From Candidatus Bathyarchaeota archaeon (GTDB lineage: Archaea > Thermoproteota > Bathyarchaeia > Bathyarchaeales > Bathycorpusculaceae): DNA of 64,000 bases. Below are positions 1,397 to 62,279 of the stretch, in pieces. Made by a program: the position numbers and the translations under genes. Position 1 is the stretch's first letter. Each line of letters starts with the position of its first letter. The notes below the pieces were generated by a model. That model ran no database searches, had not been told where the DNA came from, and saw only the letters and a list, made by a program, of their open reading frames with translations. The stretch lies in contig JAOZHU010000008.1 of NCBI GenBank assembly GCA_026014705.1, positions 17,833 through 81,832 on the forward strand, given 5' to 3'.

Positions 1397-2403
1397 TCTT
1401 TGTTACCACTTTTCCAGACTTTGGGGTATGTGCCTCTGGGCATCACAACCCTCTGGAGCGCGGCTGCCGTGCCATGTTTCAGGTTCAAGATTTCTTCGGT
1501 AGAGAGAAGCGCCTTCGCTAAGGCTACGGCTTCGCCTTTCAAGGTTTCAATAACGGTTATTGCACCTTTAGTTATGCCGCTTTCGATGGATAAAACGCCG
1601 GGCACGGTTAAGTTTGCGCCGTGGCATAAGGCGTCAACTGCTGAGTCGCGGACTATGATTTTGGGAATCAGCTCCAGCGCGGTTTCCATGGGCTGAATAA
1701 ACTTTCGGAGTATTCTCTCGTCTTCGGTCTCTTGCCACTCTACGAACCAGTAGGCTACATCGTGCAGCGTCACTTTAGTGGGGCTGTTTTCGGAGAAGGG
1801 ACCTGCGCGTGTTCTGCGGAGTTCTTGCATGTGAGCACCGCAGTTCAGGATTTCGCCGATGTCATAGCAGAGTTTCCGAATGTAGGTTCCGCCTTCGCAG
1901 CCGACTTTAAACAGTACATTTCGCCCGTTCATTTCGAGGAAGTCTATATAGTATATGCGTCTGGTTCGCAGTTGCCTCTTAACTGAAGACCTCAGCGGAG
2001 GGCGCTGGTAAATTTCATCTTCGAATTCCTTCAAAACTTTACGGACTTGCCATTCTTCGGCGTCGCCGTGGAGTTTCATTATGCACACGTATTCTTTGCC
2101 GCTGTAAAGCAAGGCTTGGACAATTTTCGTAGAATCCTCTAAAGTGATGGGCAACACGCCTGTTACTTTGGGGTCGAGTGTTCCGCCGTGTCCTATGCGC
2201 GTCAAATGCAGGATTTTCTTTGTCCAAGCGGCGACTTCGTGGCTTGTCGGTCCAGCGGGTTTGTCCAAGTTTATTACGCCGTAGCGGATGTAATCCTCAG
2301 TTGGTCTTTCTTGCGGTTTGCAGCCGAATTTTGGGTTCGTGGTGTCTTCTGTCTTCACCAGTAGTTCGCGCTTGATTTCCCATGGCGGAGTAGTTTTCGG
2401 CAT
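1393..2403 (-). CDS. cbf5: H/ACA RNP pseudouridine synthase Cbf5 (TruB family with PUA domain)
   Basis: 336 aa with KPAGPTSHEV and GHGGTLDPKVTGVLP catalytic Asp motifs and a C-terminal PUA-like region. Sits next to rpl14e, as in many archaea. Confidence 0.9.
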   Translation of the reverse strand: MPKTTPPWEIKRELLVKTEDTTNPKFGCKPQERPTEDYIRYGVINLDKPAGPTSHEVAAWTKKILHLTRIGHGGTLDPKVTGVLPITLEDSTKIVQALLYSGKEYVCIMKLHGDAEEWQVRKVLKEFEDEIYQRPPLRSSVKRQLRTRRIYYIDFLEMNGRNVLFKVGCEGGTYIRKLCYDIGEILNCGAHMQELRRTRAGPFSENSPTKVTLHDVAYWFVEWQETEDERILRKFIQPMETALELIPKIIVRDSAVDALCHGANLTVPGVLSIESGITKGAITVIETLKGEAVALAKALLSTEEILNLKHGTAAALQRVVMPRGTYPKVWKSGNKE

Positions 2404-2459
2404 GTGTGGGCGTGTTCTCCTGTAGTAAAAAAAGAGAATAGGATGTATAAGCGTTTGGT

Positions 2460-2744
2460 TTATGCTGCTACGGTTTTCGTTTTCGGCGTCATTTCTTCCA
2501 GTTTGCCGGCGTTTTTCAGGGTTGTGGTGACTTCTTCGTCTGATGCGCCTCTGGGTATGTCGATTTTGTCTTGGAGTGGTCTAAGGTGGTTTATGTTGAC
2601 TCTTTTCCTTTTGACTCCAGTGGTTTTTTGTGGTCCCGTAATTAGCACGAAGCTTTTGTCCATGACGTCGATTATGACGCATTTTTTTCCAGTTTCGCGG
2701 CCTGCCAGTTTCACGCAGATTCTGCCTATTTCTATGGAGGGCAT
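2460..2744 (-). CDS. rpl14e: 50S ribosomal protein L14e
   Basis: 94 aa. IEIGRICVKLAGRETGKKCVIIDVMD is a KOW-like motif characteristic of archaeal L14e. Confidence 0.85.
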   Translation of the reverse strand: MPSIEIGRICVKLAGRETGKKCVIIDVMDKSFVLITGPQKTTGVKRKRVNINHLRPLQDKIDIPRGASDEEVTTTLKNAGKLEEMTPKTKTVAA

Positions 2745-3013
2745 CCTTTTCTGGCTCCTTCTCGAGATTGTAGATAATTGAACTGTTAGCGCATATTTAA
2801 ATTTGATATTCTTTCAGCAACTCGGTTGAATGCACGGCGCTCCTGAAATCAAAGAGAAGTCACCGAGCACGCTTGCAGTAGCTATCTTTTCGCGACGGTA
2901 TGAGCAAGGGCTGCCTTATGGACGGCGTAAACTGAGCAGGTTGGGAAGTTAGCGCTTTGCACGAAGGACGGAGTTGCGAGCGACCAGTTCTTGCTGCTGA
3001 AGAAAAACAGTGG

Positions 3014-3580
3014 TTACTTCCTCAGTTTCAGCAGGTAATTCTTCTTGACTGCGACAATGTCTAATAGTGAATGCATGGTTTCGGATTTTTCTTTAACGTC
3101 AAATCCCTTCGTTTTATCTCTTGCTTCCTCCAGAACCATTTCAAGCTCGCCGATTTCCAAAACGGTTGCGGCTATGCAGTAGAGGCTTTTTGAGCGTCCT
3201 TCATTGAATTCCGTCAGCATCTGTTTGAGCAACTGCTCACGGGTTTTCTGTTCTTTCTCGAACTGGGCAAGCCCATTGTTATGGATGAATGCGATGTTGT
3301 CTTCAACTTTCTGGTAAGAAAGAATTGAATCGTGCTCTTTGCCGCTCTCCCTGTGCTTGCACCATCTTTCGCAAGTTTTACTCTCTTCGCAGAATCCGCA
3401 GAACTCTACGCCCTTCTTCTTAAGTGCACAGTTATGGAAGGGGCATGTAGCACCCATGCGGAATTCGCTTTTGCAGCCGCCGCATTTACTTTTTGTTTCT
3501 CTGTGGTAAGCTGGGCAAAGCCTGCAGGAGAGACCGCAAATGCCGATTTCCACATAGCTGATCTGCATTGAAGCTTTCAC
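3014..3580 (-). CDS. Cys-rich DUF3795-like protein
   Basis: N-terminal CGLSCRLCPAY...CGGC...CPFHNC...CGFC cysteine pattern typical of DUF3795. The start may be the internal MQISY. Confidence 0.55.
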   Translation of the reverse strand: MKASMQISYVEIGICGLSCRLCPAYHRETKSKCGGCKSEFRMGATCPFHNCALKKKGVEFCGFCEESKTCERWCKHRESGKEHDSILSYQKVEDNIAFIHNNGLAQFEKEQKTREQLLKQMLTEFNEGRSKSLYCIAATVLEIGELEMVLEEARDKTKGFDVKEKSETMHSLLDIVAVKKNYLLKLRK

Positions 3581-3641
3581 ATTGTGAACAGTACTCTGTT
3601 GCGTTCTTATGGCTTTGCATCGGCAAGAGCTAAAGTGGGTC

Positions 3642-4634
3642 TCAAATGGGCTTAAGCAGCAGTCTGTATGCTTCTTCCTCGATTTCAGCTACTTCCAACA
3701 AGCGGGCTGAGACTTGCTTTCCATTCTGTTGCATGGCTGCTCTGCAAAGTTCAATAATTACCGCTCCTGATTTTTGGAAAAGTGCGGAAGCTTCGTTCCA
3801 GCATTCTACTTTGTACTTGTTTCCCAGCGCTTTCAAGACAGTTGCTTGCCTGAACCGCATTCCATCGCTGTTCTCGTAAGTTATTGGTAGCATCGGCGGC
3901 GTAGTTGCGTAAGCGACCATTTGCTCGAAGCATTTCTTGTCATTCCACTCGGGGATTTGCTCCGTGGCCTTTTGCATTGCAGGAATGCCGAAGAGGTTTA
4001 CTGGCGGTTTCAGCTGCTTCTCTGCCTTGAAGCGGAAACCTTTCGCTGCGACTTCAAACTCGGATGGAATTTTCTCAGGGAGGGCAAACGCTCTGAACGT
4101 GTTCTTCTTGCTCATCCCTGGCGTGCTAACGTCCAAGGATTTTTCAAACTCTTCATACGATATTCTCTGTGCCTGTTTGCAGCAACAGTCATGCACAAAA
4201 ACCGTCTTTTCCTCATCGTCGTATCCAACTACAAGAACGTAATGGATTGGAACATGAATTTTCTTGTAAAGGTAGGGAAAATAATGCAAGTAGTACATGT
4301 CAAGTGCGCCAGCCATCACTGGCAGTCCATCGTCGATGAATCTTTTGAGTTTCGTTAACATGGATTTGAAAGCTTTTCCTTCGATCACGGTTTCGCTGAA
4401 CCCAGTGATTTGGGCAAGGTCTCTTATCAGGTATTTCGGACATGCTCCCCAGTATACTTGATGCGGTGGATTTGCTCTTTTAGAATTGATGAAGGCAAAG
4501 CCGGGCATTCCGCCGACGGATGACAGCAAAAAGTCAGGGTAGTTTACGCCTTTCCAAGCGAACATGTCTTCCAACCCATTCCAGAAGCATGTGGACTCGC
4601 AGACTCTATGCGGTAACGTTATGAGCTTTTTCAT
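3642..4634 (-). CDS. BtrH_N/DUF4872-like protein (papain-like fold family)
   Basis: 330 aa. The N-terminal C-x-STCFWNGLEDM and the later HYVLVVGYDD pattern resemble the butirosin BtrH N-domain family. Call is from memory only. Confidence 0.5.
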   Translation of the reverse strand: MKKLITLPHRVCESTCFWNGLEDMFAWKGVNYPDFLLSSVGGMPGFAFINSKRANPPHQVYWGACPKYLIRDLAQITGFSETVIEGKAFKSMLTKLKRFIDDGLPVMAGALDMYYLHYFPYLYKKIHVPIHYVLVVGYDDEEKTVFVHDCCCKQAQRISYEEFEKSLDVSTPGMSKKNTFRAFALPEKIPSEFEVAAKGFRFKAEKQLKPPVNLFGIPAMQKATEQIPEWNDKKCFEQMVAYATTPPMLPITYENSDGMRFRQATVLKALGNKYKVECWNEASALFQKSGAVIIELCRAAMQQNGKQVSARLLEVAEIEEEAYRLLLKPI

Positions 4635-4816
4635 GTTTCTCCACTAACCAGTCTTAAACTAACCTAATTTGGGCGTTAATACATAGTGTAACTGTGCGGG
4701 GTTACACGGCTAACACTGCGATTGCTGATAGAGAAGGCGGCACTAAGAGTGCGTAACTTTGGCGGGTTACAGCAACTATTTATTTTTTCCGCGGCACTAT
4801 TAGCAGTGGATGCCTT

Positions 4817-5530
4817 ATGGAGAGCGTCGTCGAGAAACTCAGGCAAATCGGACTTGCCGAGTACGAAGCTAAAGCGTACTTGGCGCTGTTGAATACGCAT
4901 CTGAGTACGGCTACACGGGTTTCCGAGAGGTCAGGTGTTCCCCGCACCAAGATTTATGTGGTTCTGGAGTCTCTGCGGGATAAGGGTTGGGTGCGCGTGT
5001 ACTCAGGCGTGCCCTTGCTGTTCAAAGCAGTTGAACCATTGAGAGTGTTCGAGAAGGCTAAGGAAGACTATGCTGAGTTCTTGGCGTCCGTTCAGACGAC
5101 GCTTAAGGAAGAAGTGAATGACATGAAAGAAAAATTCGTGATAAAAAGATTCGACGTAGGCTTAGAAGGGTTGAAAGAGGCAATTAGAAAAGCCAAAACC
5201 GTGGAAATCAACAATGCCACAGCCGACTTCGTGAAAAAGGTAAGCAGCGCCTTCAAGCAAGACGCCATGGTGAAAGTGCTCCTGTTCCCCGGCGAGGCAA
5301 AGCCCAGCAACATGCCGAACGTGCAGTTCAAACAGGCTGAAATAGCCATCATAACCATAATGCGTAACAAGGAAGTTCCATCAATGTCCATAATCCTCGA
5401 CGAAGGCAGAACATTCACGGCTTTCCAAGACCCAGTCGACCACAAATACATCGTGGATGAGATGCTGTATGACGAATGCGCCCACTGCTTCGCGGGATGG
5501 AGCAGCCTAAGCTGGGGCTCAGCCACATAA
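4817..5530 (+). CDS. TrmB-family transcriptional regulator
   Basis: The N-terminal wHTH LGLAEYEAKAYLALL...TATRVSERSGVPRTKIYVVLESLRDKGWV is canonical for TrmB. A C-terminal effector-like domain follows. Confidence 0.75.
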   Translation: MESVVEKLRQIGLAEYEAKAYLALLNTHLSTATRVSERSGVPRTKIYVVLESLRDKGWVRVYSGVPLLFKAVEPLRVFEKAKEDYAEFLASVQTTLKEEVNDMKEKFVIKRFDVGLEGLKEAIRKAKTVEINNATADFVKKVSSAFKQDAMVKVLLFPGEAKPSNMPNVQFKQAEIAIITIMRNKEVPSMSIILDEGRTFTAFQDPVDHKYIVDEMLYDECAHCFAGWSSLSWGSAT

Positions 5531-49048: not shown

Positions 49049-49123
49049 GGGCCGGTAGTTCAGTCTGGTATGAACGCTTGATTCGCAATCAAGAAGCCGC
49101 GGGTTCAAATCCCGCCCGGTCCA
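49049..49123 (+). tRNA. tRNA-Ala (anticodon CGC), integration target
   Basis: Acceptor GGGCCGG/CCGGUCC with the G3:U70 Ala identity pair. Anticodon stem CUUGA/UCAAG with loop UUCGCAA. T arm GCGGG-UUCAAAU-CCCGC. Confidence 0.9.
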
Positions 49124-49125
49124 CT
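49082..49125 (+). repeat. attL (44-bp core, part of intact tRNA-Ala)
   Basis: ttcgcaatcaagaagccgcgggttcaaatcccgcccggtccact is identical to 62236-62279. Confidence 0.9.
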
Positions 49126-49303
49126 CCACCCTTTCCTGCGGGAAAGCGTGGACGGAAATGGGTTGTTTTGGTTGATTGATGGATTCTATGGCTTCTATGC
49201 AGGCTTTTATGGCGTTTTCGCTGATTTTAGAGATGTTTAATCCTAATTCTTTGCCCTTTTCGTAGATTTTTTGGTCTATTGTTACGCTCACTTTTTTTCG
49301 CAT
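49082..49303 (-). CDS. integrase N-terminal fragment int(N) (RHH-like N-terminus)
   Basis: MRKKVSVTIDQKIYEKGKELGLNISKISENAIKACIE...ERVEWTGRDLNPRLLDCE ends at a codon boundary at the att edge. An alternative start is 49339. The 219-aa track ORF is read-through into host DNA. Confidence 0.7.
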
Positions 49304-49423
49304 CCTACTTTCGCTCTCCCCATCCGTACCTATACGCATACATGCGTATATATGCCGTTGGGAGTTGAACTTTATTGTGATTTGAAAGAAAAGAGGGAAA
49401 TATTGTTGTGCACTTTTGATTCC

Positions 49424-51142
49424 TTAAGATTTTATTTGATCAAGTATCCAATGAGGACCGTTTTCGTATCTCAAGTAGTTATCCACGTGAACGTAGGATG
49501 GTTCAGTGTAGGTGTTGGACCAACCAGACATTGATCCGCTTTCCCATGTTTCGCTAAAGAGTGCTACGCCATCATCGGTAAAGCTCCAATTGCCGTTATA
49601 ATATTTGACTAATTGTCCTCCGTCTGCTCCAGTGAATACGTTGTTTATGCTCCTATCTGAATTGTAAGCTGAACCGTCGTAGTATATGCAAGTTCCACCA
49701 GATTGGCCGGATGGCAAATAGTAGTAGACATTGAACCAGAGGTTGTCGTAGTAGCGCCGCATTTCAGCGTAGTACCAAATATTTTCATAGATTGGTGTTG
49801 CACATATCCACGTGGTCATGGCATTGTTTTTGACGTACCGTATGCCCAAATATATTTCGCCATCATCATCGTAGACCGCTACTATGTCGTGCCATTTAGA
49901 CCAGTCATTTGTGTTTCTCGCACAGGCCAGAACCGCGTAATTACCTCCTCCCGCGTCTCCATTTGTGAACATGTCGATGTTGAAGAGTGTTCCGAGTTTG
50001 CAGTCACTTTCTCTATCCCAAGTGAAACTAACGGTCTTTTGTGTGTATGCTTTATCGCTTGTGCTTTCTGAGTAGGTGCAGAATGATCCAAGATAGGAAC
50101 CCCACATGTTGCCCCAAATTTTCTTTTGTAGCATAGCCCATGAATGGCCTTCCCATCCGCCTTCAAAGTAGAAGTAATCTGATACTTCGTCGCATTGGCT
50201 ATAAATGGGTTCTACTGCAAGTGTTTGCCACCAGAAGAAATAACTTAAGTCAGAATAGAACGATTCCATTTCATCAATCAAATACTCAGTTTCAGTGTAA
50301 TCCAAGTTGAATGTTTCGCCAATGAATATTTGCTTATCTGGTTCATTCAAGTAGTTATAGGAATGACAATGACTGGCCCATTGGGTAGTACCGTAATGAT
50401 GTCGCCATTCATTGATCGCGAAAACTTCTTGATGTGTGTCTATGAAATCCCAATAGTCAGAGTATTTAACGCTGTCAAAGAACCAACAGTCACGATTAAT
50501 ATAGAAAGTTCCTGAAGCATTGTTAATTACATTTCCCATTGGAATGCTCTCAAAGGTAAACGGAATAGTGCTATAACTGTTCCACAAATCGTATAACATG
50601 TCTATGTAATCTGCCATATCCTCAAAGCTGTCGTAAGCCAAGTTATTGCCTGTTGGGTCACCGCAGTGAGGGCATGTTTGGTTAGCTTCGACCTCCTCCT
50701 CACCTATGAAAACTTTGACATCACTGTGATCCGCAAGATAATTCGCCAAATAGTAATAGAAATTACTTGCTTCACTATACGTCAATTTTTCTCCTGTGTG
50801 AAAGGTCGTTCTTGTCGCTACATAGATAACGTCATAGTAGTCATCAAAGTAATCTACCCACGTATGAATTCTGCCCGCAACGTAAGAGCCACTGTATAAA
50901 TCAGGGTCATAACCATAAGTAATCTTCACCGCTTGAAAGACTATTCCTTTACGAGTGTATGCTTCGTCAAGCATAGCTTTGACTGTAGCTGGAGTGATAT
51001 TGTTTTCGTCGCATGTCCAAGCTGAAATGAGTATGCCGAAATTACTTGTCCTATCTGTTGCGAAGGCAACATTTTGTGGGCCAAGTGTCACCAGTAGTAG
51101 CAAAGACAACGATACAACGATCCATAGCGATTTTTTGTTCAT
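49424..51142 (-). CDS. secreted aromatic-rich 572-aa protein (possible carbohydrate-active/lectin-like)
   Basis: Signal peptide MNKKSLWIVVSLSLLLLVTLG. Very Y/W/D/N-rich and AT-rich coding. ATGA overlap with the upstream gene. Confidence 0.6.
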   Translation of the reverse strand: MNKKSLWIVVSLSLLLLVTLGPQNVAFATDRTSNFGILISAWTCDENNITPATVKAMLDEAYTRKGIVFQAVKITYGYDPDLYSGSYVAGRIHTWVDYFDDYYDVIYVATRTTFHTGEKLTYSEASNFYYYLANYLADHSDVKVFIGEEEVEANQTCPHCGDPTGNNLAYDSFEDMADYIDMLYDLWNSYSTIPFTFESIPMGNVINNASGTFYINRDCWFFDSVKYSDYWDFIDTHQEVFAINEWRHHYGTTQWASHCHSYNYLNEPDKQIFIGETFNLDYTETEYLIDEMESFYSDLSYFFWWQTLAVEPIYSQCDEVSDYFYFEGGWEGHSWAMLQKKIWGNMWGSYLGSFCTYSESTSDKAYTQKTVSFTWDRESDCKLGTLFNIDMFTNGDAGGGNYAVLACARNTNDWSKWHDIVAVYDDDGEIYLGIRYVKNNAMTTWICATPIYENIWYYAEMRRYYDNLWFNVYYYLPSGQSGGTCIYYDGSAYNSDRSINNVFTGADGGQLVKYYNGNWSFTDDGVALFSETWESGSMSGWSNTYTEPSYVHVDNYLRYENGPHWILDQIKS

Positions 51143-54281: not shown

Positions 54282-54449
54282 CTAAGCCTCCTGCCCAACG
54301 GTAACATTCGTTTCGGGATATCGCATCAGAAAGTTGCGTATGGCCTCTTTGACGATTTCCCCGCGGCTTCTGAATCCATGCTTACCAACGAGTTTATCGA
54401 TTTCATCAACCATTTCGTTGGGGAGTTTTATCGTGGTGTAGTCGTTCAT
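54282..54449 (-). CDS. ribbon-helix-helix (CopG/Arc/MetJ-type) regulator, 55 aa
   Basis: Not in the track. MNDYTTIKLPNEMVDEIDKLVGKHGFRSRGEIVKEAIRNFL. GAGGGG lies 8 nt upstream. Confidence 0.6.
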   Translation of the reverse strand: MNDYTTIKLPNEMVDEIDKLVGKHGFRSRGEIVKEAIRNFLMRYPETNVTVGQEA

Positions 54450-54537: not shown

Positions 54538-55527
54538 CTAACTATGCTTGTATATTTCAATGGCTATGAAAACCGCAAAAACCAAAACACCGATGGTTAC
54601 TGCAAAAACATACGGGTTATTGTACCATAAGTCACTCTGCGAAGACTCTGTCGGCGTTGGATCAGGAGAAATACCCAGTAACTCTAAAAGCGACATATAG
54701 ACTTCTTTTTCCTCATCGTCTATAGTTAGGAGACCGAAATAATTTTCCTTTTCAGGCACTAAACCCGTGTTGTCGTACATTTCGTAAATGAAGATTTTAT
54801 CGACTTCAGGGGTTAATCCAACAATGTTATCGACAAGATACTCTGCTTGACCGGTTTCTGTGTAGCCCTCTGTCGCTGAGGGTCTTCCGATTTCAGTTAC
54901 CCAGACGTTCTTGTTAGTTATTCCTTTTAAAGTGTCTATTGTCGCAACGTTTGCGGATAACTCATCATAAAGGTGCACTCCCAGATAGTCATAGTAGAAT
55001 CTTATTTCTGTGTTGTTGTAGACGGCATTGAAGTAATCCATCCAATTTTCTATTGGAGCTAACGCCCCAGAAATTACCAACGCGCCTGTTTCGTTCTTGA
55101 TTATTTGATAGGCGCTTTTCAGCATCTCAGTGTAGTTTTCAGGTGGAATATAGGCAGCTCCGTTCGGTTCGTTCCAAATCTCCCATGCGTCTATTTCCTG
55201 TGCTATGGGGTTATCGAGAATGTCGTAGAGCGTGTTGTTCCAAAGTTCAGGGGTCAAATCCGCAGCGTTTACGGTTCTGTTGTCGATTATTGCCAAAATT
55301 TTTATGTTGTGAGCTTTCAGGGCAGACATAGCGACGTCGCTTTCGTTGTATTGATAATCCATTCTAACCCACCTAACTTTCAGCTCTGAGAGGCGATCAA
55401 GCGTGGAACTACGATAATCTTCTGGGTGCAAACACACGTTTACTTCATAATTTGGTGAAGCATAAGCTAAAGTAATCAAAACTAAGAATGAAACAATGAT
55501 GATGTTTGTGGCCACTGTTTTTTTCAT
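54538..55527 (-). CDS. secreted clan GH-A (GH5-like TIM-barrel) glycoside hydrolase, C-terminally membrane anchored
   Basis: Signal peptide MKKTVATNIIIVSFLVLITLAYA. WEIWNEPN (acid/base NEP) and NVWVTEIG (nucleophile) motifs. PDPTPTE linker plus a TM helix ending IYKHS. Confidence 0.65.
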   Translation of the reverse strand: MKKTVATNIIIVSFLVLITLAYASPNYEVNVCLHPEDYRSSTLDRLSELKVRWVRMDYQYNESDVAMSALKAHNIKILAIIDNRTVNAADLTPELWNNTLYDILDNPIAQEIDAWEIWNEPNGAAYIPPENYTEMLKSAYQIIKNETGALVISGALAPIENWMDYFNAVYNNTEIRFYYDYLGVHLYDELSANVATIDTLKGITNKNVWVTEIGRPSATEGYTETGQAEYLVDNIVGLTPEVDKIFIYEMYDNTGLVPEKENYFGLLTIDDEEKEVYMSLLELLGISPDPTPTESSQSDLWYNNPYVFAVTIGVLVFAVFIAIEIYKHS

Positions 55528-55564
55528 TTTTTGTGCCTTAAGAATAGAAAAAAAGGTTGTGGGA

Positions 55565-56221
55565 TTAGAACTTTTTGATGTACCCGACACAGATACCCAC
55601 CGCCGCCAAGGCAACCACAACGCCCATCAGACCATACATTGCCGTCGTTACCGGGGCAGTCCGCGAATAGTTAGCTATGGTCACCACAATATAACCCGCT
55701 ATTTGACTGTTTTGCGGGTGCCCAGCAACGTTAATGTCAGTCAACGTGAAACCTGAATGCGCTGTTTTGTAGATCTGACTTGAGCCACTGTACACTGTCA
55801 AATATGTGCCGTCGTATTGAAAAGTCACAGTTTTGGAGTATGAGGAAACGGTTTTTTGGTACACTGTTCCTGTCTTTGTCCAGTTAGTGTATTTGTACAA
55901 GTATTCGGTCAGTTGGCCGCCTTCAGCTACGGTGTCGTGCTCCCAGCTTATTCCCCATCCGTCATGATCTGGATTTGCGATTTGCACTAAAAACCATGCT
56001 GTGTCATTGGTTGGCGCAGAAACTTCATGCAAATTTGAGAAATCCACAGTTACAGTGAAATTGCTATATGAGTTATCCAGCGTATCCCAGTACTCTGTGT
56101 ATATTTGGTCTTCGTTGAATGTGTATACTTCATTTGTTGTCGCAGCATAGACAGGAGTTGCTATAGCGATGCACAGCACTGCCAATACTGCAAGAGTCAG
56201 AAGTGCGTTCCGCCGGTGCAT
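55565..56221 (-). CDS. secreted beta-sandwich protein with C-terminal TM anchor (candidate envelope/structural protein)
   Basis: Start at ATG 56221, 11 nt after GGGAGG. Signal peptide LLTLAVLAVLCIAIATPVYA. TM helix ending GYIKKF. The upstream part of the 265-aa track ORF is rejected. Confidence 0.55.
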   Translation of the reverse strand: MHRRNALLTLAVLAVLCIAIATPVYAATTNEVYTFNEDQIYTEYWDTLDNSYSNFTVTVDFSNLHEVSAPTNDTAWFLVQIANPDHDGWGISWEHDTVAEGGQLTEYLYKYTNWTKTGTVYQKTVSSYSKTVTFQYDGTYLTVYSGSSQIYKTAHSGFTLTDINVAGHPQNSQIAGYIVVTIANYSRTAPVTTAMYGLMGVVVALAAVGICVGYIKKF

Positions 56222-56238
56222 TTGCGGATCCGCCTCCC

Positions 56239-56346
56239 TTAGAACTTGCCAAATTTCTTCAGCAAGCCAAGGACCATTCCAAGCATGGCGAAGGTGATGA
56301 TTAGGGGCATCCATTCGAGCACAGTGGATGTTATGTCTGAGCTCAT
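56239..56346 (-). CDS. 35-aa hydrophobic mini-protein
   Basis: GGAGG lies 9 nt upstream of the ATG. Translates to MSSDITSTVLEWMPLIITFAMLGMVLGLLKKFGKF. First gene of the leftward unit. Confidence 0.45.
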   Translation of the reverse strand: MSSDITSTVLEWMPLIITFAMLGMVLGLLKKFGKF

Positions 56347-56385
56347 TCGCTTTATCCTCCAAAAGATACTCTCATGTCCCAAATA

Positions 56386-56425
56386 AAACATTTGTTAAAC
56401 AAAATGGTTAACAATGTTTAAATTT
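56386..56425. promoter_or_regulatory. divergent control region: imperfect inverted repeat and TATA-like box
   Basis: AAACATTTGTT (56386-96) and AACAATGTTT (56410-19) form a 10/11 inverted repeat. TTTAAATTT (56417-25) lies about 28 nt upstream of the leaderless-looking ATG at 56449. Confidence 0.4.
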
Positions 56426-56448
56426 AAGTGTTTTGTTATATTTGGTAC

Positions 56449-56619
56449 ATGGAAAAGAACGAGTGCGGCAGACTTAACCTCTACCTTCCAAAAACCCTCA
56501 TTGCTTGGCTAACAAAACAAGCAGAAAGCAACCATCGAAGCCTCAACAACTACGTTACCGTTGTTCTTGAAGACCATAAAAAAGAGAAGGAGACAGCACC
56601 ATGTATATCGGTGCATTAA
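56449..56619 (+). CDS. ribbon-helix-helix regulator, 56 aa
   Basis: MEKNECGRLNLYLPKTLIAWLTKQAESNHRSLNNYVTVVLEDH is an RHH pattern. First gene of the rightward unit. Confidence 0.55.
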   Translation: MEKNECGRLNLYLPKTLIAWLTKQAESNHRSLNNYVTVVLEDHKKEKETAPCISVH

Positions 56620-56843
56620 TCCAGTTCCCAGACGGCGCACGGAAAATAGTTGAGTCAATAAGCGAACACGACTCCATAGCCATAGCCAAATTCATGGGCA
56701 AAATCGCCAAGTACGCCAAAAAAGAAAACAAGCTTGTGAAGGTGTGCGCTGACGACGTCAAAGCTCTCAAAGCTTTGTCGAAAGCGCTCGGCGGCGTAAC
56801 GGTTGAATGGGGAGTCATAGAGAGGGAGTACCCATGCGAATAA
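56601..56843 (+). CDS. hypothetical 80-aa protein
   Basis: GAAGGAGA lies 8 nt upstream. Overlaps both neighbours. Confidence 0.45.
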   Translation: MYIGALIQFPDGARKIVESISEHDSIAIAKFMGKIAKYAKKENKLVKVCADDVKALKALSKALGGVTVEWGVIEREYPCE

Positions 56844-58384
56844 ACTTGATTAAAATCAGTAGCGTCCTGATTTTTGCACTTCTGCTTTTAACAGCAACAG
56901 CTCCTAATTTTGCGAAAGCAATAGAGTCACAAACGGTAACCGTTTTTCCTGTTGCTGACGCCATGTGTGACAGCTTTAAACCTGACGAGAATTTCGGGTA
57001 TGCGAGCACTTTTACCGTTGGCGTCCAAGCAGATACGAGCATAAGAAAATATTACGCTAAATTTGACTTGTCAAGCTTCAACCTATCAAACATAATTAGT
57101 GCAAAGCTAAGGTTTTTGCCATTTCAAACGTCAAGCTCCTTCGCGATGGACATACACGAATGCGAAGATTACTGGCAGGAACCTACAATTTGTTGGAATA
57201 ATGCACCGTTCCAACAAAGCAAAGTTGGCGATTGCTGGATTGGCGACACTGGCATATGGTACGAGTTAAACGTTACATCCTTCGTAAAAACAGAATATGA
57301 TAAAGTCTGGAGTGTTGTATTTACTAACCAAACGGCAGTGGCAAACGCGGTAGCCTATTTCTTTAGCCGCGAAGACAGTCAATACTCTCCGAGGCTTATC
57401 ATAGAGTACATTCCACAACAAAGCACGCCTCCATCCGCTTCAGGCGGGCAATGGACATTAACGGGGGTAAGCGGTAACTGGAGCTACTCTACGGATCCAC
57501 TTCTGCTCGCGGGGGAAGGATGGAACGCTTCCCCCGCTTTCGCCAACTTCACCCACGGAAACCTGAACAAGACCTTTGCTGATGGGGAAGGCTTCCAAAT
57601 CAACTTCACCGTCAGCATTCAAGGCAACCGTCGTGAGTGGTGGTGGATTGAAGGCACCAAACGATTCTACTTTAGCCTTGGGATTCACGGTACTAATGAC
57701 GCAGCATATACGTTGTTCTACATTGCGCATGAACAAGGGTTTGCTTGGAGCAGCAGCGAAGCAAAAGTTGGCACACAACAGCAATACAATATTGGCAAGC
57801 CATGGCCGAGCTTGCAGGTTGGCGAAACAGTTGACACAACAGGCGCCGTGTACTATATACAAGTAATCCGTGTCAACGCCACTACGGCTAAAGTTGTATA
57901 TGCCACTAACGTGTTTGGCAACGACTTGGAAATTACTGAAGGCAGCATAAAAACCTTTAACGAAACGCTTACAGTGGATTCGTCAGTTTGGGATAATCCA
58001 GTGCTTAACTTGTACGCTGGTCATGACGGCAGTGGCACCTTTGAGTGCGTTTTTGGCGATGTGTACGTAGGCACCATAACAGGTTTTGAAGATCAAACAC
58101 CAACGCAACTTAACCCTAACCCGTTCCAATGGCTAATCGACGGTTTCAATTTTATTTGGGGTTTGGCTACCATGATAGGCGCCTTTGCAGGCGCGTTTTT
58201 GCCAATTTTGCCATGGATATTCCTGTTTTACGCTTTAGATGTAATAGTGACAAGCGTCCAAGTCGGCAGCGTACAACCAATCGGCAAATTCGCCCTGATG
58301 ATCTGGGAATTCCTGCTCAAGGTATGGTTCGTGCTCGTGCGTATTGGCCAACTCATCTGGGATGCGATAACTTTCTGGACGTGA
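56834..58384 (+). CDS. spike-like secreted protein: signal peptide, DNRLRE/CBM-like N-domain, C-terminal multi-TM region
   Basis: Start at ATG 56834 after GAGGGAG. PVADAMCD...NFGYAS...YYAKFDLSSF...AKLRF...YWQEPTICWNNAP pattern. The last ~90 aa form 2-3 hydrophobic helices. Confidence 0.6.
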   Translation: MRINLIKISSVLIFALLLLTATAPNFAKAIESQTVTVFPVADAMCDSFKPDENFGYASTFTVGVQADTSIRKYYAKFDLSSFNLSNIISAKLRFLPFQTSSSFAMDIHECEDYWQEPTICWNNAPFQQSKVGDCWIGDTGIWYELNVTSFVKTEYDKVWSVVFTNQTAVANAVAYFFSREDSQYSPRLIIEYIPQQSTPPSASGGQWTLTGVSGNWSYSTDPLLLAGEGWNASPAFANFTHGNLNKTFADGEGFQINFTVSIQGNRREWWWIEGTKRFYFSLGIHGTNDAAYTLFYIAHEQGFAWSSSEAKVGTQQQYNIGKPWPSLQVGETVDTTGAVYYIQVIRVNATTAKVVYATNVFGNDLEITEGSIKTFNETLTVDSSVWDNPVLNLYAGHDGSGTFECVFGDVYVGTITGFEDQTPTQLNPNPFQWLIDGFNFIWGLATMIGAFAGAFLPILPWIFLFYALDVIVTSVQVGSVQPIGKFALMIWEFLLKVWFVLVRIGQLIWDAITFWT

Positions 58385-59376: not shown

Positions 59377-59715
59377 ATGAGTTTTCAACCTAAAAAGAAA
59401 TATGATATCGAGATGCAAACACTCCAAACGCTTAGCCAGAAACTCGCAGCGAAACGGAACGACCTTGCCGACTACGCTTGCAATCTTAACGCTGACAAAC
59501 TCGCAATACTCGACTTGTACATCAAAGCCTATGAAAAAGAGGGTCCTGAATTTACCGACTGGTTGAAAGGCATGCGCGAGCAACTTAAGCTCCAAGGCGA
59601 AGCCTTGTGGATCATGCACGCAGACGTGCTCACAAACCTTGGTTTGAAAGTTGGAAAGACTGGAATGAGGGAGATCAGTGGAAAACGCAGCAATGGTCCA
59701 GACGCCCCAGTATAG
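59377..59715 (+). CDS. hypothetical 112-aa protein
   Basis: Starts 2 nt after the previous stop. Helical, no domain recognised. Confidence 0.45.
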   Translation: MSFQPKKKYDIEMQTLQTLSQKLAAKRNDLADYACNLNADKLAILDLYIKAYEKEGPEFTDWLKGMREQLKLQGEALWIMHADVLTNLGLKVGKTGMREISGKRSNGPDAPV

Positions 59716-60475
59716 TGAAGCGTTAGCTGACATAGTTTCACAGTTTTTTAAACAGTACAAGTATCCCGTCTGCGTCATCTATGGCAACCCCGACACAGGA
59801 AAAAGCGACACCGCCTGCCTATTCGCCGAAATCGCACTCAACGAGAAATGCATAGACTACTTTGCGTCGAATATGAGTACTTATGGTCATGGCGAGAAAA
59901 TTACTTCGTTACAGGATGTCAACTACTGGTTTGCTCATCAAGTCGGAAAGAAACTGTTTATTCTTGATGAAGCTGGAATCCATGATGATACGCGCTCGCC
60001 GCTTAGCGGATTAACCCGCAAGATACGCCACAGCGTCTTTGTGACCCGCAAGTTCTTTGGTCATTGGATCTTCATTCTGCAGGATATCAAGGACTTGGAT
60101 ACTTGGAAAGACAGCGAGCTCACAGGCATGATCGTCAAGAAGCAAGTGTTCGGCAACGAGTTTGTTGCAAAGATCAAGTGCAAGTGGAACGAGGACCTCA
60201 TAACTGTCCGTGACTTCCCGAAAGCCACATTGCCATTTGACACGTTGGATATTGCACCATTCACTCTCGAACGGCAACTCACAGACGAAGAACTGGAGCT
60301 GAAGGGCACGCCGAATAAAGTCGCGTACCTCTATGCGGCGACTGGGAATTTTAGCGTTATTTGTAAGCAGTTGAAGCAGGATACTGGGCAAGAGTGGAAG
60401 CCTATGCAAGTGAAGCGTGCGCTTCAGCAGTACATACGGCAAACCCTGCGAGCACATGAATCGCCTGAAAATTAA
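59678..60475 (+). CDS. P-loop NTPase (Walker A/B)
   Basis: Walker A is GNPDTGKS (aa 36-43) and Walker B is KLFILDEAG. The start could be the internal Met at 59693. Confidence 0.65.
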   Translation: MENAAMVQTPQYSEALADIVSQFFKQYKYPVCVIYGNPDTGKSDTACLFAEIALNEKCIDYFASNMSTYGHGEKITSLQDVNYWFAHQVGKKLFILDEAGIHDDTRSPLSGLTRKIRHSVFVTRKFFGHWIFILQDIKDLDTWKDSELTGMIVKKQVFGNEFVAKIKCKWNEDLITVRDFPKATLPFDTLDIAPFTLERQLTDEELELKGTPNKVAYLYAATGNFSVICKQLKQDTGQEWKPMQVKRALQQYIRQTLRAHESPEN

Positions 60476-61368: not shown

Positions 61369-62262
61369 TCAAACTTTCACCTTCTCTTGTATCTCGCTTA
61401 TACCCTGAAACACACGAGTCCTCAAGTCTACAATCAACGCAGGATTGAAGTAGTGCTGCATGAACACGCTTCCCGTTACCCTGCCATGCAGAAAATCAAT
61501 CTCTTGCTGCTTGAGATACTTTGTCATAAACGTGGCATGTGCCTCACGCACGTCGCTGAACCGCAAAGGTAAAACCCGCTTCGTGCTCGTTTGAATCGTG
61601 AACTTGTTAAGCTGCTTACTTTCCGCTACGTGATACACCAAGTCTTGTGGCACAAATGACACAAATGCCTTTTTCGTATTCCGCAGAAAGAGCTCTTTAA
61701 ACTTGTAATGCTCCAGCACCGCCTTGTCATGCACGTAGTAATCAGCGAGCTTTCGCTCCGCCGCCAACTTAATAACCAAATTGTAAGCCGAAACAGCTTC
61801 AACAAGCCGCAAACCCGTCACCGCTAAAAAGTCCACGAATACAGCAAACTCAGGACGCAACCGCTTCAAATCACGGATCCACTGCCAAATTTCCTCAGGG
61901 TTCTGTATTTTATTTAGTCGCTCAATAAACACATCATCCTTGCTTTTACCTGCCCACTTCAAATTATACTGGGATGCCAACCGCCGCCAATCATCATACT
62001 CACCACGAAACTTGGCCAACGCACTAAGCGAAGCCATAACCAACCGCCGCTTCCCAGCACTAAACCCAAGCAACGCCGACAAATCACGCCCTAAAAAGCA
62101 ATCCTGAAAACTCCGAGCGTAATTCGCCATGTACCGCGCAACATGCGGCTTATGCTTCCCCTCACTCAACAACCACTCTTCAAACTTAACCCAGAACTCC
62201 CAACCGAGGGAGTCGCGAGAACCGCGGGTTTTCGCTTCGCAATCAAGAAGCCGCGGGTTCAA
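61369..62262 (-). CDS. SSV-type tyrosine integrase, C-terminal catalytic fragment int(C)
   Basis: AVTGLRLVEA (Arg), DVREAHATF, FLHGRVTGSVFMQHY (His-x-Arg ... Tyr) contexts. The 5' end runs into attR. Codons NPRLLDCE are the antisense of the tRNA T-arm and anticodon stem. Confidence 0.8.
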   Translation of the reverse strand: MNPRLLDCEAKTRGSRDSLGWEFWVKFEEWLLSEGKHKPHVARYMANYARSFQDCFLGRDLSALLGFSAGKRRLVMASLSALAKFRGEYDDWRRLASQYNLKWAGKSKDDVFIERLNKIQNPEEIWQWIRDLKRLRPEFAVFVDFLAVTGLRLVEAVSAYNLVIKLAAERKLADYYVHDKAVLEHYKFKELFLRNTKKAFVSFVPQDLVYHVAESKQLNKFTIQTSTKRVLPLRFSDVREAHATFMTKYLKQQEIDFLHGRVTGSVFMQHYFNPALIVDLRTRVFQGISEIQEKVKV

Positions 62263-62279
62263 ATCCCGCCCGGTCCACT
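62236..62279 (+). repeat. attR (44-bp core, orphan tRNA-Ala 3' half)
   Basis: Identical to 49082-49125. Followed by the host oligo-T tract. Confidence 0.9.

Follow-up and report, generated by a model that had tools for sequence, protein, structure and literature searches.

Archaeal viruses of the family Pleolipoviridae (e.g., HRPV-3, Betapleolipovirus) infect haloarchaea, range in size from 7 to 17 kb and include integrating members, and their known virions carry one spike, one internal membrane protein and no enzyme (PMC12642806). Here we describe a cassette of three genes within a 13-kb, pleolipovirus-like integrated element of Bathyarchaeia, located in a window (i.e., the whole stretch of DNA that was analysed) of 64,000 nucleotides from a Candidatus Bathyarchaeota archaeon (assembly GCA_026014705.1, contig JAOZHU010000008.1, positions 17,833 to 81,832 of the forward strand). 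The cassette encodes a 35-amino-acid (aa) peptide (p35), a 218-aa protein with a predicted β-sandwich (b218) and a 329-aa predicted glycosidase (GH329). The element is similar in size to Pleolipoviridae and shares with them a homologous nucleoside triphosphatase (NTPase, phrog_1979) and a colinear block made up of a small protein, a large spike with a signal peptide and transmembrane (TM) segments, two or three small proteins and the NTPase. However, its host is not a haloarchaeon, its spike and membrane proteins have no detectable similarity to those of the family and, unlike the known pleolipovirions, it comes with an extra cassette of an anchored lectin-like protein and a glycosidase.

By sequence and by predicted fold, the enzymes of solved structure closest to GH329 are PslG of Pseudomonas aeruginosa (CAZy glycoside hydrolase (GH) family GH39; PDB 4zn2, 5bx9, 9g17) and BcGH39 of Bacteroides cellulosilyticus (5jvk). 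PslG is a membrane-tethered, endo-acting enzyme on surface polysaccharide, described in a 2025 study as a retaining endo-β-glucosidase with Glu165 as acid/base and Glu276 as the covalently labelled nucleophile (PMC11912335). GH329 is also membrane-anchored, but its identity to PslG and BcGH39 is only about 20%, it lacks their C-terminal β-sandwich domain, its anchor is a C-terminal helix in a protein that starts with a signal peptide (that of PslG is N-terminal), and, unlike both, it is archaeal and carried by a mobile element. The PF11790/GH128 β-1,3-glucanases (PDB 6uaq, 6ubd and others) resemble GH329 in having a small barrel and share its Pfam model.

Among viral systems, the tailspike depolymerases of phages POR1, RSB3 and Bacchae (GH5-like) resemble the role that we propose, i.e., bind, then cut, but they are soluble tail proteins of tailed phages, whereas the receptor-destroying enzymes of enveloped animal viruses are type II proteins of unrelated fold; GH329 is a type I protein of a presumably enveloped archaeal element, and no homology is implied. 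According to a 2024 review, an S-layer-degrading hydrolase had yet to be identified in any archaeal virus, the exception being a proposal that concerns a tail protein of SSV19 (PMC10791045), and a predicted polysaccharide lyase is known from the Bathyarchaeia provirus ‘Huangdivirus’ (PMC10848311). The idea of S-layer or surface-glycan degradation is the same in both, but these are spindle-shaped viruses and their enzymes belong to other classes than GH329. The published virome of Bathyarchaeia comprises four families, none of them pleolipovirus-like (PMC10848311). The fold and mechanism predicted for the enzyme are ordinary. Its setting is unusual: within a pleolipovirus-like element of Bathyarchaeia, a glycosidase that is exchangeable and anchored as a type I protein is paired with a lectin-like protein that has its own anchor.

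The GH329 enzyme and its β-sandwich partner

The three closely spaced, minus-strand open reading frames (ORFs) lie at the place given in the original prediction, which had been made from the sequence of the window and described a membrane-anchored glycosidase of clan GH-A. All features that it listed for GH329 are present, i.e., a hydrophobic signal peptide (MKKTVATNIIIVSFLVLITLAYA, followed by SP, cleavage after AYA), the motifs WEIWNEPN (residues 115-122) and WVTEIG (209-214), a Pro/Thr/Ser-rich stalk at about residues 287-300 (SPDPTPTESSQSD) and a C-terminal TM helix, hydrophobic over 303-328 (305-328 in the AlphaFold2 (AF2) model) and followed by a 3-residue tail. Six N-glycosylation sequons (N-x-S/T) are found, every one in the ectodomain. 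As b218 likewise combines a signal peptide with a C-terminal TM segment (189-218), both are type I membrane proteins, and the term “tail-anchored”, which the prediction had used for the partner, does not apply in its strict sense.

PF11790 (Glyco_hydro_cc) was the only Pfam model that GH329 passed (39.8 bits, gathering score 21), with sub-threshold traces of GH17 and GH39 (15.8 bits for the GH39 model PF01229, gathering score 26) and no match in PHROGs or NCBIfam. We recovered 84 relatives among 5.8 billion clustered proteins, almost all of them PF11790 proteins and almost all of 280-310 aa. The single sequence already reached PslG in the PDB (E 7e-8), and the family profile covered the whole barrel of 5jvk (3.8e-29) and PslG (2.9e-28) and extended to GH39 β-xylosidase structures (1e-9 to 1e-6). 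Matches of the same profile to GH128 structures were confined to positions 168-264 (E 8e-7 to 1e-2). Given that the GH128 match is weak and partial in comparison with about 1e-28 for GH39 structures, and that no GH128 structure occurs in the top 50 PDB fold matches of the GH329 model, the GH128 or β-1,3-glucanase label implied by the Pfam name is not justified and was rejected.

In the profile alignment, the NEP motif of GH329 falls on WNEPN of PslG and its TE motif on STEWG, so that E120 corresponds to Glu165 and E212 to Glu276. Neither residue varies across 33 aligned homologs with identities as low as 23%, and the same holds for N119, H185, Y187 and W209. The alignment-based AF2 model (predicted local distance difference test (pLDDT) score 87.2, predicted TM-score 0.81) consists of a (β/α)8 barrel (residues 30-285) followed by a disordered stalk and a helix at the end, and Foldseek places PslG first among PDB structures (E 1.4e-14, TM-score 0.68 on the query), 5jvk next and then other clan GH-A families. 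The stalk and TM helix follow directly after the barrel, where the solved GH39 enzymes (PslG, XynB) have a C-terminal β-sandwich (Foldseek targets 413-490 aa), and the barrel itself is unusually short (about 260 aa). Among predicted viral structures, the best matches of the model were GH5-type proteins of the tailed bacteriophages POR1, RSB3 and Bacchae, with no archaeal virus among the matches, and a tblastn search of GH329 against 50,697 phage and archaeal-virus records gave no match. With a predicted (β/α)8 barrel, an acid/base glutamate in the NEP motif (E120) and a nucleophile glutamate (E212), the proposed assignment to clan GH-A is upheld, and by sequence and model GH329 is a GH39-like (PslG-type) glycosidase with a minimal barrel and a predicted retaining activity.

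The partner was modelled with similar confidence (pLDDT 87.2) as a 13-strand β-sandwich spanning residues 30-184, between the signal peptide and the TM helix, in agreement with the β-rich protein originally described. Galectins, GH16 lichenases and CBM66 were its top Foldseek matches (E 6e-6 to 1e-4, TM-score about 0.6 on the target), and no sequence similarity to any lectin family was found in Pfam, PHROG or NCBIfam. Thus b218 is predicted to be a galectin/concanavalin A (ConA)-like jelly roll, with a putative lectin function read from the fold only. A word-indexed search returned three close relatives, and a profile search of 1.84 billion representatives brought the family to 33 clusters, nearly all of 200-225 aa and matching end to end. 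The central β-sandwich domain of the family also occurs in 14 tandem copies in a 1607-aa metagenomic protein (P0091).

The C-terminal anchor of the b218 family follows the consensus W(I/L)PxIVxFAMLGMxxGxIKKFGK, which is essentially the sequence of p35, and the anchor of the window’s own b218 is divergent from it. The peptide p35 looks like a detached, free copy of the anchor helix of the b218 family and is conserved at 92-100% in sister elements.

The cassette in related elements and in the host lineage

Searches that started from the enzyme, from b218, from the NTPase or from a degenerate DNA pattern of the anchor brought together 11 related elements (the window’s included), all from Bathyarchaeia except for one from Methanomethylicales. 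Almost all of them carry a leftward unit of p35, a b218-family protein and then a secreted, C-anchored protein in what we call slot 3. The original prediction had raised the question of homologs in other archaeal mobile elements, and the three-gene order does recur in related elements from other samples; together with the PF11790 score and the 84 relatives, this recurrence places the observation beyond chance.

The third slot is occupied by different proteins. A GH39-like/PF11790 enzyme is present in 3 of the 11 elements (the window, L083-86 with 89% identity, and L105 with 42% identity and its own C-terminal anchor), a GH99-like one in four (L088/L110, L106, L109 and L111; PF16317 at 36 bits against a gathering score of 33 for L088), and a secreted protein with no family assignment in the other four (L097, L108, L112 and L107, the last from a metagenome-assembled genome (MAG) of Methanomethylicales). 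Those of L097, L107 and L112 have a C-terminal TM segment or anchor, and the ORF of L108 runs off the locus. The GH99-like protein of L088 shares the stalk and anchor of GH329 (...YWYQNPVTFVAIAGVLIFAVFVGIEVYKHS; 51% identity over the last 41 aa), with the motif WY(N/Q)NP preceding the TM segment in both. Moreover, the nearest metagenomic relatives, two proteins of 571-572 aa (P0004 and P0005, loci L089-L091), consist of a GH99-like domain fused to a GH39-like one, a fusion that suggests activities of both kinds on one glycan. One of the two adjoins a subtilisin-like protease; the neighbours of the other are six genes without annotation, which run on the opposite strand.

A comparison of the window with L105 gives 82% identity for the NTPase, 42% for GH329 and 38% for b218; a conserved core with diverged GH329 and b218 is the pattern expected of surface-exposed proteins. 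The tree of the enzymes joins the one from the element, with 100/99 support, to one further C-anchored protein and to the two GH99-like/GH39-like fusion proteins. The locus from the Candidatus Methanomethylicales MAG (L107, JACIVQ010000018.1) contains a ribbon-helix-helix (RHH) protein, a p35-like peptide, a b218-like protein, two further secreted proteins and a tyrosine recombinase, and the presence of the cassette there, outside Bathyarchaeia, suggests that elements of this family occur in two or more classes of Thermoproteota.

Within the 33 aligned homologs, a C-terminal anchor is restricted to the element copies P0001 and P0002 and a near relative on a 1.2-kb contig (P0003); the element-borne enzyme of L105, which lies outside this alignment, has one as well. 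The cellular relatives end right after the barrel and have only an N-terminal hydrophobic segment. The host genome holds a single copy of GH329, the one inside the element, and of 61 genomes searched (the window’s own and 60 relatives) only three gave any match. One is the copy in the element, the second, in G003, covers the anchor alone, and the third, in G031, has 30% identity.

The integrated element

The claim that the cassette is encoded by a mobile element is supported: the GH329 gene lies between perfect 44-nt direct repeats (100% identity, spacing 13154) that bound an element of 13.15 kb (Table 1). Its SSV-type integrase is interrupted, and joining minus-strand positions 49339-49082 to 62235-61369 restores an uninterrupted frame of 374 aa; since the halves rejoin in an open frame, the integrase has been split by its own integration and looks intact. 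Both the enzyme and the element have their closest relatives in Bathyarchaeia MAGs. A larger sister element of about 19.6 kb in a genome of the same genus (G003, contig C16, 4008-4055 and 23623-24029; the contig of L088) occupies the same tRNA-Ala site, with an identical 48-nt attachment (att) copy. No empty tRNA-Ala site was found in 30 relatives, among which the right flank is not conserved and the G003 site is occupied by its own element. Just outside the att site of this sister element (L088, 13036-14352, minus strand), we also observed a gene for a 438-aa signal-peptide/TM protein with DUF4185.

Table 1. Features of the integrated element and its cassette (positions in the window)
Feature	Position	Strand	Basis
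tRNA-Ala(CGC), integration target	49049..49124	+	ARAGORN
attL, 44-nt repeat, 3' part of the tRNA	49082..49125	.	repeat search
int(N), N-terminal fragment of split integrase	49126..49339	-	in-frame join through att
572-aa secreted protein, left end of the element	49424..51142	-	signal peptide
RHH (CopG-type) regulator, downstream of the cassette	54282..54449	-	PF01402, 39.3 bits
GH329, 329-aa type I membrane glycosidase (predicted activity); signal peptide, GH39-like clan GH-A barrel, Pro/Thr stalk, TM anchor	54538..55527	-	
b218, 218-aa type I membrane protein; predicted lectin whose ectodomain is a galectin/ConA-like β-sandwich	55565..56221	-	AF2 model, Foldseek, 33-cluster family
p35, 35-aa single-TM peptide	56239..56346	-	one TM segment; matches the C-terminal anchor consensus of the b218 family
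AT-rich intergenic region that separates the cassette from the divergent structural/NTPase module, putatively regulatory	56347..56427	.	sequence and gene orientation
small RHH-like protein, encoded first in the rightward module	56428..56619	+	ORF; conserved in all sister elements
525-aa spike-like membrane protein, N-terminal CBM96/DNRLRE module, C-terminal TM segments	56807..58384	+	PF24517, 84.8 bits; NF033679; PDB 8wab
265-aa P-loop NTPase, pleolipovirus type	59678..60475	+	phrog_1979, E 8.9e-16
int(C), C-terminal part of SSV-type integrase, starts inside attR	61369..62262	-	PF16795, 43.9 bits; phrog_5127
attR, second 44-nt repeat copy	62236..62279	.	

To the right of the cassette, the genes encode, in order, the RHH protein, proteins of 80 aa and 525 aa (the latter with signal peptide and TM segments), proteins of 172, 125 and 112 aa, and the 265-aa NTPase, a block that is colinear with VP1-VP2-ORF3-ORF4-ORF5 of HRPV-3. 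The family of the NTPase also holds HRPV-3 ORF5 (2.6e-137), and a direct tblastn comparison with HRPV-3 gave an E value of 1e-3. The 525-aa protein and the small membrane proteins had no PHROG or Pfam match to the pleolipovirus families phrog_2231 or phrog_3232, nor was a capsid or any known pleolipovirus structural protein detected with Pfam and PHROG among the proteins of the element, and neither the NTPase nor the anchor motif was found in IMG/VR viral contigs. A spindle-shaped virus like ‘Huangdivirus’ was rejected as an identity for the element on account of its pleolipovirus-family NTPase, fusellovirus-type capsid proteins not having been tested for separately.

The CBM96 (carbohydrate-binding module) domain of the 525-aa protein is present only in the window and L088; in L083, L097, L105, L108 and L109 the protein has 315-348 aa and matches residues 216-525 only. 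This distribution marks CBM96 as an add-on to a conserved, TM-bearing C-terminal body.

At the opposite end of the element, the 572-aa protein had no Pfam, PHROG or PDB match, and homologs in L082 (42% identity) and L097 (565 aa). In an alignment of the protein with these and with the slot-3 protein of L097, two Glu residues about 110 positions apart are invariant. When hhalign matched this alignment to the GH39-like family (E 1.5e-5, 80% probability), the second of the two Glu fell on the nucleophile. The 572-aa protein may therefore be a second, very divergent GH-A-like glycosidase barrel with a β-rich C-terminal domain. The idea that it is a copy of the equally long GH99-like/GH39-like fusions P0004 and P0005 was rejected, as there is no similarity between them. 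If the CBM96 spike and the 572-aa protein are counted, secreted or anchored, apparently glycan-directed proteins make up about 37% of the length of the element. The only GH relative in IMG/VR viral contigs is a weak one on L082 (IMGVR_UViG_3300017929_000341), a contig unrelated to the element. There, at 2286-5458, a distant relative of 446 aa (25% identity) stands beside the homolog of the 572-aa protein, which is on the opposite strand, a pairing which indicates that the two also travel together elsewhere.

Proposed binding and cutting at the host surface

We postulate that p35, b218 and GH329 form an exchangeable host-surface-glycan module of pleolipovirus-like integrated elements of Bathyarchaeia that serves in entry or egress, a proposal to which we give a roughly even probability. 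The fold, the catalytic residues, the topology, the place inside the element, and the conservation of the slot together with the swapping of its domain were all computed here. GH329 would be a Sec-exported type I membrane glycoprotein whose retaining ectodomain (E120 as acid/base, E212 as nucleophile) stands on a flexible stalk above a 3-residue cytoplasmic tail, and b218 would be a lectin anchored in the same manner. After induction, the proteins of the cassette would be inserted into the host membrane and leave with the membrane that wraps the vesicle-like particle of the element, in company with the CBM96-bearing spike. The lectin and the CBM could then attach to a glycan on the host surface, either exopolysaccharide or S-layer/N-linked glycan, for the glycosidase to cut. 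Cutting would open a path to the membrane at entry, and/or free the particles and block their re-adsorption at exit. Such a receptor-destroying role would follow the logic of viral neuraminidases or phage tail depolymerases.

Several observations weigh against this proposal. The slot-3 proteins of four elements (L097, L107, L108 and L112) have no recognisable glycosidase domain (nothing in Pfam), and since the tree left the enzyme of L105 unplaced, its acquisition only once, by an ancestor of the element family, is no more than a possibility. The cellular homologs of GH329 have ordinary chromosomal surroundings, in one case next to a cluster of glycosyltransferase (GT) genes (GT4/GT2/UDP-glucose-dehydrogenase), and with such contexts a role of the family in cell physiology is plausible. 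The NTPase is the only pleolipovirus hallmark detectable by sequence, and because the spike and membrane proteins have no similarity to known ones, we infer rather than observe that the element is a virus; we likewise infer that particles incorporate the cassette proteins, which substrate is cut and when in the cycle these proteins would act.

The main alternative, possible if somewhat unlikely, is lysogenic conversion, in which the cassette is an auxiliary one, expressed from the integrated element, and decorates the surface of the host for remodelling of its exopolysaccharide or biofilm matrix (as PslG does) or for harvesting environmental polysaccharide, with a gain in fitness, or for superinfection exclusion by trimming of receptor glycans. 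PslG, the nearest characterised relative, is after all membrane-anchored and processes the cell’s own exopolysaccharide (PMC11912335), the cellular homolog beside the GT cluster points the same way, the cassette stands apart as a leftward unit and has an upstream region of its own, and as the host lineage is otherwise devoid of the enzyme, the element would add a new capability. Nevertheless, the C-terminal anchor is absent from the cellular relatives, and the cassette and the structural module have a putative control region in common. Above all, metabolic cargo is not expected to keep its slot, stalk and anchor, and lectin partner while the GH family changes; with these features and the place beside the structural block kept as the catalytic domain swaps between unrelated GH families, a host-interaction module fits better than a metabolic passenger gene. 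The comparative data thus favour cleavage of glycans at entry or egress over an auxiliary function.

We regard it as improbable that the element is not a virus but an integrative or vesicle-transferred plasmid, in which lectin and glycosidase would serve cell-cell contact or vesicle docking. The negative searches for a capsid, for known pleolipovirus structural proteins and for IMG/VR counterparts of the NTPase and anchor motif speak for it, and genes of pleolipovirus type also occur in haloarchaeal plasmids. However, the gene order is colinear with the pleolipovirus core, the NTPase belongs to the pleolipovirus family, and as the glycosidase would work in much the same way on a membrane-vesicle vehicle, this explanation differs mainly in name. 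A still more remote explanation, to which we attach very little weight, would have GH329 as a non-catalytic or differently acting protein, i.e., a glycan-binding surface protein that keeps the GH fold, as its short barrel and missing GH39 β-sandwich domain might suggest; yet neither the two Glu residues nor the preceding Asn nor the HxY motif varies in the 33 aligned homologs, and pseudo-enzymes normally lose such residues.

Returning to the entry or egress module, a broader and distinctly more tentative view, of which we are doubtful, is that there exist enveloped, pleolipovirus-like viruses of Bathyarchaeia (and Methanomethylicales) with a membrane-borne bind-and-cut pair, b218 and the CBM96 spike on one side and an exchangeable GH39-like or GH99-like type I glycosidase on the other. 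Such a pair could be an independently evolved archaeal counterpart of the pairing of attachment protein and receptor-destroying enzyme in enveloped animal viruses.

How most archaeal viruses pass through the glycosylated cell envelope is an open question, for which this cassette offers a concrete, clonable candidate with clear catalytic residues, predicted lectin partners and natural swap variants (GH39-like versus GH99-like on one anchor) for comparison. It also provides a functional trait for a group of pleolipovirus-like elements, itself undescribed, from an abundant sediment lineage. Should lysogenic conversion prove to be the explanation, a provirus would be supplying its host with a surface glycosidase that is absent from the host lineage; should the bind-and-cut reading hold true, this would be the first concrete enzyme set by which an archaeal virus crosses or leaves the glycan/S-layer barrier.

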